A DNA stretch of 2,827 nt from Enterobacteria phage CUS-3. Numbering within the stretch: position 1 is the stretch's first letter; each line of letters starts with the position of its first letter. Both the position numbers and the translations under genes were made by a program. Location: the sequence record FN394986.1, one strand, 5' to 3'. A model generated the notes under the pieces. The model searched no databases and was not told the origin of the DNA. It saw only the letters and a program-made list of their open reading frames with translations. Shown here in pieces: positions 1 to 2,827 of the stretch.

Positions 1-438
1 ATGGCGCGCCCAACAAAGTATCAAGAGGCGTATGCCGAACAGGCACGCAAACTGTGCTTGCTGGGCTACACCGATGCAGAGCTTGCTGATTTCTTCGAAG
101 TCAGTGAGTCAACTATTAACAAGTGGAAGCTTGATTATCCTGAGTTTTCGGAGTCCATAAAAAAGGGTAAGGCCGTCGCTGATGCAGAAGTTAGTGACCG
201 TCTTTATCAACGCGCTATGGGCTTCGTGGCTCCAGACATCGATATTCGTGTTATTGAAAACAGAATTGTCGAAACTCCTCTTGAGAAGTATTACCCGCCT
301 GATACAACAGCTGCCATCTTCTGGCTTAAGAACCGACAGAAGGATAAATGGCGCGACAAGGTTGATCACGAGCTAACAGGCAAAGACGGCGGCGCAATCC
401 AGATTGAAACATCACCGATGAGTACTCTATTCGGAAAA
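1..438 (+). CDS. Terminase small subunit (P22/Sf6-like), 3' end lost in N-run
   Basis: ATG at 1-3; frame 1 open through 438 and into the Ns; about 47% GC. N-terminal stretch TDAELADFFEVSESTINKWKLDYPEF has the helix-turn-helix pattern typical of small-terminase DNA-binding domains. Visible 146 aa is close to the full length of such proteins. The TGA at 541-543 that closes the track ORF lies beyond the gap and is not a reliable stop. Confidence 0.7.
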
Positions 439-538: not shown

Positions 539-1762
539 TCTGAGCCATGTGTAAAATATTATGATGGCATTCTGTATCTGACGACCAGGGGGACATTAAG
601 TACTCAACCCGGTAGTTCATTGCACAGAAGCTCTGATTTAGGTACATCATGGAATTCTCTTCGCTTCCCAAATAATGTTCATCACTCAAACCTTCCTTTT
701 GCCAAAGTTGGCGATGAGCTGATTATTTTTGGCAGTGAGCGCGCATTTGGTGAGTGGGAAGGAGGAGAACCTGATAACCGTTATGCAGGAAACTATCCAA
801 GAACATTTATGACCAGAGTTAACGTCAATGAGTGGAGTCTGGATAATGTAGAGTGGGTTAATGTTACTGATCAGATTTATCAGGGCGGAATAGTTAACTC
901 TGCGGTTGGTGTTGGTTCAGTTTGTATCAAAGACAACTGGCTGTACTACATTTTCGGTGGGGAAGACTTTCTAAACCCATGGAGCATAGGGGATAACAAC
1001 AGAAAATATCCTTATGTTCACGATGGTCACNNNNNNNNNNNNNNNNNNNNNNNNNNNNNNNNNNNNNNNNNNNNNNNNNNNNNNNNNNNNNNNNNNNNNN
1101 NNNNNNNNNNNNNNNNNNNNNNNNNNNNNNNNNNNNNNNNNNNNNNNNNNNNNNNNNNNNNNNNNNNNNNNNNNNNNNNNNNNNNNNNNNNNNNNNNNNN
1201 NNNNNNNNNNNNNNNNNNNNNNNNNNNNNNNNNNNNNNNNNNNNNNNNNNNNNNNNNNNNNNNNNNNNNNNNNNNNNNNNNNNNNNNNNNNNNNNNNNNN
1301 NNNNNNNNNNNNNNNNNNNNNAGCGGCGGTGAAACAACGTCTTCAGCAGATGGTGCAATGATAACGTTGCATGGTTCCAGAAGCAGTACTCCACGTCGCG
1401 CGGTATATAACGCACTCGAACATCTTTTTGAGAACGGAGATGTTAAACCTTATCTTGATAATGTAAATGCTCTTGGTGGTCCGGGAAACAGGTTCTCGAT
1501 AGTTTATCTTGGCTCCAATCCTGTGGTTACCAGTGACGGAACATTAAAGACAGAGCCGGTCTCTCCTGACGAAACATTGCTGGATGCCTGGGGTGACGTC
1601 AGGTATATCGCTTATAAATGGCTGAACGCTGTCGCTATAAAGGGGGAAGAAGGGGCGAGGATACATCATGGTGTAATCGCGCAGCAACTTCGTGATGTTC
1701 TTATTTCTCACGGACTCATGGAAGAAGAAAGCACAACATGCCGCTATGCCTTTCTTTGCTAT
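539..1762 (+). CDS. Endosialidase-type tailspike (endo-N-acetylneuraminidase), internal and C-terminal fragment; 5' end absent, 3' end lost in N-run
   Basis: Frame 2 open across 539-1030 and 1322-1762 with no stop; the same frame on both sides of the 291-nt N-run. Translation 542-1030 begins EPCVKYYDGILYLTTRGT and contains a sialidase Asp-box SSDLGTSW. Translation 1322-1762 contains a peptidase-S74 chaperone domain. Not in the ORF track because frame 2 lacks a stop. Adjacent to a NeuO-like gene, as in CUS-3-type K1 prophages. Confidence 0.75.
629..652 (+). other. Sialidase Asp-box motif (S-x-D-x-G-x-T/S-W) within tailspike
   Basis: Codons AGC TCT GAT TTA GGT ACA TCA TGG encode SSDLGTSW, matching the bacterial/phage sialidase beta-propeller Asp-box consensus with Ser in place of Thr. 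Confidence 0.6.
1031..1321. other. N-run, 291 nt (97 codons), inside tailspike ORF with reading frame preserved
   Basis: Counted directly. Length is a multiple of 3 and frame 2 is coding on both sides, so this looks like a length-preserving mask or sized gap rather than an arbitrary join. Confidence 0.9.
1532..1762 (+). other. C-terminal intramolecular chaperone domain (peptidase S74) of tailspike, with predicted autoproteolytic Ser|Asp site at 1532-1537
   Basis: Translation VVTSDGTLKTEP...VRYIAYKWLNAVAIKGEEGARIHHGVIAQQLRDVL. Ser (1532-1534), Asp (1535-1537) and Lys at +5 (1547-1549) match the catalytic Ser-Lys dyad spacing of the endosialidase/tail-fibre chaperone domain. The R-x-H-x-G-V-I-A-Q block is characteristic of this family. 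Domain is cut off by the N-run at 1763. Confidence 0.75.
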
Positions 1763-2179
1763 NNNNNNNNNNNNNNNNNNNNNNNNNNNNNNNNNNNNNN
1801 NNNNNNNNNNNNNNNNNNNNNNNNNNNNNNNNNNNNNNNNNNNNNNNNNNNNNNNNNNNNNNNNNNNNNNNNNNNNNNNNNNNNNNNNNNNNNNNNNNNN
1901 NNNNNNNNNNNNNNNNNNNNNNNNNNNNNNNNNNNNNNNNNNNNNNNNNNNNNNNNNNNNNNNNNNNNNNNNNNNNNNNNNNNNNNNNNNNNNNNNNNNN
2001 NNNNNNNNNNNNNNNNNNNNNNNNNNNNNNNNNNNNNNNNNNNNNNNNNNNNNNNNNNNNNNNNNNNNNNNNNNNNNNNNNNNNNNNNNNNNNNNNNNNN
2101 NNNNNNNNNNNNNNNNNNNNNNNNNNNNNNNNNNNNNNNNNNNNNNNNNNNNNNNNNNNNNNNNNNNNNNNNNNNNNNN
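1763..2179. other. N-run, 417 nt; must hide the tailspike 3' end, the intergenic/promoter region and the 5' end of the acetyltransferase gene
   Basis: Counted directly. The chaperone domain is incomplete at 1762, and the acetyltransferase is already coding at 2180. Confidence 0.9.
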
Positions 2180-2827
2180 ATGTTGTTTTCCGTTGATGAT
2201 AATGGGTCAGGTAATGTTTTTGTATGTGGAGATCTTGTAAATAGCAAAGAGAATAAAGTTCAGTTCAATGGAAACAATAACAAACTTATTATAGAAGATG
2301 ATGTTGAGTGTCGATGGCTTACCGTAATATTTAGGGGTGATAATAATTACGTAAGAATACATAAAAACAGTAAGATTAAAGGTGATATTGTCGCAACAAA
2401 AGGTTCAAAAGTTATTATCGGTAGAAGAACGACAATAGGTGCAGGTTTTGAAGTCGTCACTGATAAGTGCAATGTTACAATTGGCCATGACTGCATGATA
2501 GCAAGAGATGTTATTTTGCGTGCATCAGATGGGCATCCTATATTTGATATTCATAGCAAAAAAAGGATTAATTGGGCAAAAGATATCATTATATCTAGTT
2601 ACGTATGGGTAGGGAGAAATGTCTCTATAATGAAAGGAGTATCTGTTGGAAGCGGATCTGTCATTGGGTATGGGAGTATTGTAACTAAAGATGTGCCATC
2701 TATGTGTGCAGCAGCCGGTAATCCAGCAAAAATAATAAAAAGAAATATAATATGGGCAAGAACGGATAAAGCGGAGCTAATTAGTGATGACAAGAGATGC
2801 TCCAGCTATCATGCGAAGCTCACGCAA
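2180..2827 (+). CDS. neuO: Polysialic acid O-acetyltransferase, NeuO-like (hexapeptide-repeat / left-handed beta-helix acyltransferase); 3' end beyond window, true 5' end possibly within upstream Ns
   Basis: ATG at 2180-2182 immediately after the Ns; frame 2 open for 216 codons to the window end with no stop. Hexapeptide repeats are visible: IGRRTTIGAGFEVVTDKCNVTIGHDCMIARDVIL and VWVGRNVSIMKGVSVGSGSVIGYGSIV. About 36% GC, lower than the phage genes. His at codon 119 and Trp at codon 143 (counting from this ATG) match my recollection of the reported NeuO catalytic residues. Sits directly downstream of an endosialidase tailspike, as in prophage CUS-3. Confidence 0.8.
   Translation, partial: MLFSVDDNGSGNVFVCGDLVNSKENKVQFNGNNNKLIIEDDVECRWLTVIFRGDNNYVRIHKNSKIKGDIVATKGSKVIIGRRTTIGAGFEVVTDKCNVTIGHDCMIARDVILRASDGHPIFDIHSKKRINWAKDIIISSYVWVGRNVSIMKGVSVGSGSVIGYGSIVTKDVPSMCAAAGNPAKIIKRNIIWARTDKAELISDDKRCSSYHAKLTQ

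Follow-up and report, generated by a model that had tools for sequence, protein, structure and literature searches.

The 2,827-base stretch of DNA analysed here (hereafter the window) belongs to Enterobacteria phage CUS-3 and holds parts of its endosialidase tailspike gene, siaK1, together with neuO, the gene for a polysialic acid O-acetyltransferase. An earlier reading of the letters (the original prediction) had described an endosialidase-type tailspike followed by a NeuO-like O-acetyltransferase, in the arrangement known from CUS-3. We conclude, with a probability of about 0.97, that the window is a typing record of CUS-3, a P22-like temperate phage and prophage of Escherichia coli K1, with the siaK1 tailspike and neuO as cargo. 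Sequence identity, domains and catalytic residues were examined directly, as were the order of genes in reference genomes and the K1 locus of one carrier genome; enzyme activity, phase variation and the phage-resistance phenotype are taken from the literature on identical proteins.

The window was compared by megablast with phage records, which returned a set of 2,827-bp GenBank entries entitled 'Enterobacteria phage CUS-3 partial proviral terminase gene, siaK1 gene and neuO gene'. One of these, FN394990.1, equals the window base for base, runs of N included, and carries four partial coding sequences (CDS) at exactly the readable coordinates, with siaK1 and neuO annotated. Its source is E. coli Delta-56, serovar K1, genotype GT_6. 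All four readable pieces were also 100% identical to CP000711, the complete CUS-3 genome (host E. coli RS218). Set beside the CUS-3 typing records (FN394218 and FN394987-FN395002) and CP000711, the readable sequence of the window showed no difference from CP000711, and the CUS-3 arrangement named in the original prediction is thereby borne out. What the typing record lacks relative to CP000711 is the repeat array of neuO, present in 19 copies in RS218, along with the junctions and some 37 kb of phage sequence.

The window consists of four readable pieces (1-438, 539-1030, 1322-1762 and 2180-2827; 2,019 readable bases) separated by three runs of N (439-538, 1031-1321 and 1763-2179; 100, 291 and 417 bases). 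In order, its features are:

1-438, plus strand: terminase small subunit, full CDS minus the stop codon; 100% identical to CP000711 22705-22268, PHROG 309 (E 2e-68), and annotated as such
439-538, no strand: arbitrary spacer of 100 N; the flanking pieces are 18,254 bp apart in CP000711
539-1030, plus strand: siaK1 endosialidase, amino acids (aa) 487-650 of 981, part of the catalytic six-bladed beta-propeller; Pfam End_beta_propel, E 1.6e-104
1031-1321, no strand: 291 N standing for unsequenced siaK1 bases; the gap in CP000711 is 291 nt, so that the true length is kept, with the same frame on both sides
1322-1531, plus strand: siaK1 aa 748-817, where the stalk domain ends; covers positions 91-160 in the 160-position profile of Pfam End_tail_spike; matches the C-terminus of the mature K1F endoNF chains
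1532-1762, plus strand: siaK1 aa 818-894, the opening 77 residues of the intramolecular chaperone at the C-terminus; Pfam Peptidase_S74 from fragment residue 71, and alignment with 3GW6
1763-2179, no strand: 417 N in place of the final 264 nt of siaK1 (stop included) and the 153-nt siaK1-neuO spacer with the neuO promoter region; from CP000711 mapping and annotation
2180-2827, plus strand: neuO, polysialic acid O-acetyltransferase, complete coding sequence minus the stop and (AAGACTC)n; match to 3JQY, CP000711 identity from base 6, Pfam Hexapep

A stitched and edited record

The window is a stitched typing record of polymerase chain reaction (PCR) fragments, not one contiguous stretch of a genome. 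In CP000711 a distance of 18,254 bp separates the terminase piece from the first tailspike piece; the 100 N between them are accordingly an arbitrary spacer, and the terminase-tailspike neighbourhood seen in the window is artificial. The 417-N run reproduces the CP000711 distance exactly once the repeat is excluded. The typing records probably stem from Mordhorst et al. 2009, going by the strain names; a full-text literature search for the accessions FN394990, FN394218, FN394987 and FN395002 gave no match.

The record has also been edited at the 5' end of neuO. There CP000711 reads ATGTT, 19 copies of AAGACTC and then GTTTTCC (retrieved stretch L002, 4864-4996). The window reads ATGTTGTTTTCC, with ATGTT joined straight to GTTTTCC at 2184/2185, the proper place of the repeat, and the neuO piece is 100% identical to CP000711 from base 6 of the open reading frame (ORF) onward. 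Among the E. coli genome matches listed for the neuO piece, all begin at ORF base 6, and the zero-repeat junction is absent from them. With the repeat present in the reference and missing from the window, it would be the depositor who removed the variable repeat. Its absence is thus best regarded as a property of the deposited record and not of the gene, and the 216-aa neuO ORF as an artificial zero-repeat form in which the phase-variation switch is no longer visible. With the repeat gone from the record, the window does not reveal whether neuO is ON or OFF in the strain.

The (AAGACTC)n repeat lies two bases after the neuO start codon, where, as at a contingency locus, slipped-strand changes in copy number switch expression, and the gene is ON, yielding full-length protein, only if the count is divisible by three (PMC3046976). 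NeuO's catalytic efficiency rises in linear fashion with the count of RLKTQDS heptads that the repeat encodes (PMC3046976). We found the repeat at the predicted place in two strains, with 19 copies in RS218 and 20 in UTI89, both counts out of frame. In the siaK1-neuO spacer a candidate promoter (ATGACA-17-TAAAAT) matched at 10 of 12 positions, but such sites were not more frequent in the region than in shuffled sequence.

The terminase piece (1-438) had no match in a Pfam scan, and no family reached its gathering score when the whole window was scanned against Rfam. Minus-strand ORFs within 1532-2827 were not taken as genes, all of them being at most 64 aa long and lying inside plus-strand genes. 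The concatenation, the absent variable-number tandem repeat and the restriction of its tailspike span to the chaperone had all escaped the original prediction.

Tailspike fragments and the NeuO acetyltransferase

The translation of 539-1030 matched the endosialidase structures 4HIZ, 1V0E and 3GVK, and its alignment to the K1F endoNF chains was ungapped. This piece contains the catalytic triad of siaK1, Glu488 (542-544), Arg503 (587-589) and Arg554 (740-742), the equivalents of Glu581, Arg596 and Arg647 in the published numbering of the K1F active site (PMC2955717). The three residues fall at fragment positions 2, 17 and 68, with spacings of 15 and 51, as in K1F. In the second piece (1322-1762, 147 codons), Pfam End_tail_spike covered aa 1-70 and Peptidase_S74 aa 71-132, and the translation matched the K1F endosialidase chaperone construct 3GW6 (E 9e-61). 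These matches lie far outside what chance would give, and on this evidence both pieces are assigned to the CUS-3 endosialidase tailspike, an endo-N-acetylneuraminidase of family GH58, in agreement with the endosialidase-type spike of the original prediction.

The codon of Ser818 occupies 1532-1534 and aligns with the autocleavage position, which is mutated in 3GW6 (VTSDG here versus VTANG in 3GW6). Since 1532 is the first base of that codon, the span 1532-2827 contains no catalytic tailspike, only the chaperone domain that is cleaved off. The original prediction had given this span as tailspike plus NeuO; NeuO is indeed whole within it, but the tailspike is represented there solely by the chaperone.

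In the full CUS-3 reference protein the domains run Head_binding, End_N_terminal, End_beta_propel/End_beta_barrel, End_tail_spike and Peptidase_S74, the barrel being inserted in the propeller. The P22-type Head_binding domain (E 5e-66) was seen in this reference protein, in a region outside the readable window. Propeller, stalk, chaperone and the Glu/Arg/Arg triad are common to the CUS-3 spike, K1F endoNF (1V0E, 3GVK, 3GW6) and the phi92 endosialidase (4HIZ). The head-binding N-terminus of the CUS-3 spike is of P22 type, whereas K1F has a T7-type adaptor (PMC5380687); K1F is a lytic phage and, unlike CUS-3, is without neuO. The exchange of one catalytic module between the P22-like CUS-3 and the T7-like K1F has been described as tailspike modularity (PMC5380687).

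A number of further E. coli phage records (39-46 kb; lytic phages such as MW722083 and ON470605) showed about 99% DNA identity to 1322-1762 and had no neuO match. Such identity of stalk and chaperone in phages with no neuO match is what one would expect if the 3' module of the tailspike had recently passed between types of phage.

The last piece, 2180-2827, is an open frame of 216 codons, and over its residues 3-216 it matches the NeuO of PDB entry 3JQY with 100% identity (214 aa, E 3.4e-142, 474 bits). Weaker matches were found to 2WLC, the meningococcal polysialic acid O-acetyltransferase (E 3e-31, 111 bits), and to the galactoside and maltose acetyltransferases LacA/Maa (E 1e-19 to 1e-15, at most 71 bits). 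In zero-repeat numbering, the catalytic His119 of NeuO lies at 2534-2536 and Trp143 at 2606-2608. Arg109 (Arg137 in the crystal) and every basic residue named for the proposed polysialic acid platform are present (residue roles from PMC3046976). In CP000711 the TAA stop of neuO follows directly after the end of the window. The 3JQY crystal construct carries four N-terminal RLKTQDS heptads, which shift its numbering by 28, whereas the window form has none because the repeat was taken out of the record. By its sequence, 2180-2827 encodes the NeuO polysialic acid O-acetyltransferase, the best match being NeuO itself, as the original prediction had proposed.

A generic hexapeptide-family sugar O-acetyltransferase of the maltose, galactoside or colanic-acid type might be considered instead, given that the Pfam match is to the generic Hexapep family, that RefSeq labels the protein 'acyltransferase', that one phage record has 'general stress protein' and that the PHROG family is listed as 'unknown function'. 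Against these labels stand the 474 bits to crystallised NeuO, compared with 111 bits to 2WLC and at most 71 bits to LacA/Maa, and the presence of all the NeuO-specific catalytic and basic platform residues. With 100% identity over 214 aa to NeuO 3JQY, the generic assignment is refuted, and we consider its probability negligible; a best match of that generic kind, which the original prediction had given as grounds for its own refutation, did not turn up. The preferred assignment of 2180-2827 is therefore NeuO.

The nearest solved relative after NeuO is the N. meningitidis polysialic acid O-acetyltransferase (2WLC), with which it has the hexapeptide fold and the type of substrate in common; the similarity is distant. 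The 2WLC family goes by the name OatWY. The meningococcal enzyme is chromosomal and encoded in the capsule locus, is not prophage cargo and is not known to have a heptad repeat domain. The G+C content of neuO is 36%, compared with 44% for siaK1 and 47% for the whole phage; such a low value is typical of acquired cargo and points to a foreign origin of the gene.

Automatic annotation is poor for neuO. In UTI89, where the 20 repeats put it out of frame, the gene appears only as a 111-aa 'acyltransferase' in RefSeq (L004, 5861-6646), and CP000711 has no CDS for it. The feature beneath the neuO match in phiv205-1 (MN340231) is named 'general stress protein', and PHROG 30105, the family containing NeuO, is listed as of 'unknown function'.

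Gene order and host capsule locus in complete genomes

CP000711 has the order mnt, ant, siaK1, neuO repeat region, int, attL. Its siaK1-neuO spacer measures 153 nt, and attL lies at tRNA-Arg (argW). The order siaK1, neuO, int, tRNA-Arg is common to CP000711, UTI89 and FY26; in UTI89, yfdC comes after tRNA-Arg. A cargo gene for lysogenic conversion at the tailspike end of the prophage, as the original prediction had it, is what this order displays. Its statement that the tailspike is 'followed by' NeuO stands in part: the order is real in the reference genomes and the N length is exact, but the junction is masked and the order is unreadable in the window itself.

The record being a concatenation in which the 100-N spacer conceals 18,254 bp and the siaK1-neuO junction is likewise masked by N, the adjacency of tailspike and neuO might have arisen from joining unlinked PCR fragments, the genes not being neighbours in this strain. 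The 417 N, however, match the CP000711 distance to the base (264 + 153 nt), and neuO stands directly after the tailspike gene in all three of the neuO-carrying genomes inspected. A 41-nt remnant of neuO occupies the same site in strain GPEC172, and neuO was amplified with siaK1 and int primers in a 2021 paper (PMC8653822). Given the exact N length and the order in every inspected genome, adjacency as a pure artefact of concatenation is rejected and appears very improbable; we retain the reading in which siaK1 and neuO are true neighbours.

Two genomes showed rearranged versions of the locus. E. coli GPEC172 (NZ_CM142814.1; L006, 5893-6041) carries a CUS-3-like prophage with an intact tailspike gene and with neuO deleted except for its last 41 nt. 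The deletion breakpoints coincide with a 9-bp direct repeat, ATGACAAGA, of which one copy lies in the neuO promoter region and the other near the neuO 3' end, and the loss looks like a microhomology deletion. In E. coli FY26 (NZ_CP101741.1; L007, 3230-8481) an IS3-family insertion interrupts the CUS-3 tailspike gene, and neuO lies intact just downstream as an 840-nt CDS. This length corresponds to 27 repeats, in frame (ON). To judge from the genes, FY26 has retained the cargo gene in a prophage predicted to be no longer able to make its spike.

The neuO carrier UTI89 has a complete K1 capsule region, comprising kpsFEDUCS, neuS (the alpha-2,8-polysialyltransferase gene), neuE/C/A/B/D and kpsTM. 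The host check that the original prediction asked for did not refute it, the host of the record being labelled serovar K1 and this carrier having the capsule locus. Genes were counted over 5,426 complete E. coli genomes. In this set neuO was present in 161 genomes, always on the chromosome, with 160 at an identity of at least 99% and one at 95-99%. The tailspike propeller fragment occurred in 185 genomes at 245 places, up to four per genome, and neuS in 329 genomes. The ratio of neuO to neuS is roughly one half (161 versus 329, tallied separately for each gene), which fits the published presence of neuO in 43.5% of 8,659 K1 genomes (PMC13001214). With the propeller in 185 genomes and at 245 places and neuO in 161, some strains would carry extra endosialidase copies or CUS-3-like prophages that are without neuO.

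Proposed role of the tailspike-neuO pair

[quoted passage not shown] The C-terminal chaperone, which begins at window base 1532, would aid folding of the trimer and then be cut off at a serine. NeuO would move acetyl groups from acetyl-CoA onto O7 or O9 of sialic acids in long polysialic acid chains, and slipped-strand changes in the number of AAGACTC copies would turn it on and off. An acetylated capsule may then lower susceptibility to lytic K1 phages (superinfection exclusion), and may also alter how the host immune system and the environment act on the cell.

Published work describes NeuO as a homotrimeric left-handed beta-helix that catalyses acetyl-CoA-dependent O7/O9 acetylation of alpha-2,8-polysialic acid in chains of at least 14 residues (PMC3046976). 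The host regulator DsdC controls neuO (PMC9659370). Loss of neuO led to more killing by lytic K1 phage in two independent studies (PMC9659370; PMC13001214), and superinfection exclusion has been proposed outright (PMC13001214). Other reported effects concern the bacterium: O-acetylation raised serum susceptibility and left bladder colonisation unchanged (PMC13001214), neutrophil survival or resistance (PMC13001214) and Siglec escape (PMC8653822) have been linked to NeuO, and so have desiccation resistance and an association with ST95 (cited in PMC3046976).

None of the evidence speaks against the identification, which nevertheless has some limits. The readable window contains neither the junction of tailspike and neuO nor the neuO promoter nor the repeat array, so that adjacency and phase state in Delta-56 derive from the reference and the lengths of N that the depositor entered. 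The capsule locus of the host is also outside the window, and the K1 status of the strain comes from the record label 'serovar:K1'. Whether NeuO is favoured mainly for phage exclusion is still debated in the literature, where effects on desiccation, neutrophils, Siglecs and serum are reported as well.

One alternative keeps the identification, but in it NeuO chiefly benefits the bacterium in its host or environment, through immune evasion, neutrophil resistance or desiccation tolerance, with protection of the prophage secondary and the slot beside the tailspike simply the usual cargo position of P22-like phages. Desiccation resistance, the ST95 link, Siglec escape and neutrophil survival all speak for it, as does FY26, which keeps neuO with 27 repeats (ON) beside a tailspike gene split by IS3. 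On the other side are the increased killing by lytic K1 phage after neuO deletion, observed in both of the studies cited above, and the finding that O-acetylation raised serum susceptibility with bladder colonisation unchanged; moreover, the two benefits are not mutually exclusive. We regard a primary benefit to the bacterium as possible but the less probable account. A putative self-favouring device, in which the acetylated capsule would block rival K1 phages while the CUS-3 endosialidase still bound or cut it, seems to us quite unlikely. If it did operate, phase switching would govern which phages enter a lineage, and, because the readable sequence equals the reference, it would be a general property of CUS-3 and not one specific to the window. 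The reading that we prefer remains that of a CUS-3 record with siaK1 as tailspike and neuO as cargo.

A comparable design is seen in Sf6 Oac and in other serotype-converting O-antigen acetyltransferases and glucosyltransferases of P22-like and Shigella phages, in which a temperate phage likewise alters the very polysaccharide recognised by its tailspike, through a gene placed close to the end with the tailspike or the integrase. Unlike NeuO, which is a soluble, phase-variable hexapeptide enzyme acting on capsule, Sf6 Oac has another fold, belongs to the integral membrane acyltransferases and acts on O-antigen.

The identification is already known in full detail and the window adds no new information. 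A CUS-3 record has been deposited, NeuO has been crystallised and several publications, up to 2026, have described the phenotype, in keeping with the view of the original prediction that this was not a new system. What the check mainly contributes is to show that the record is stitched and edited, and it counsels caution: gene neighbourhoods across the N runs of such a record are not to be trusted without a reference. As to the biology, the tailspike and neuO form a classic pair in which a prophage edits its own receptor by means of a phase-variable cargo gene, and this pairing has consequences for the phage therapy of K1 E. coli and for virulence.

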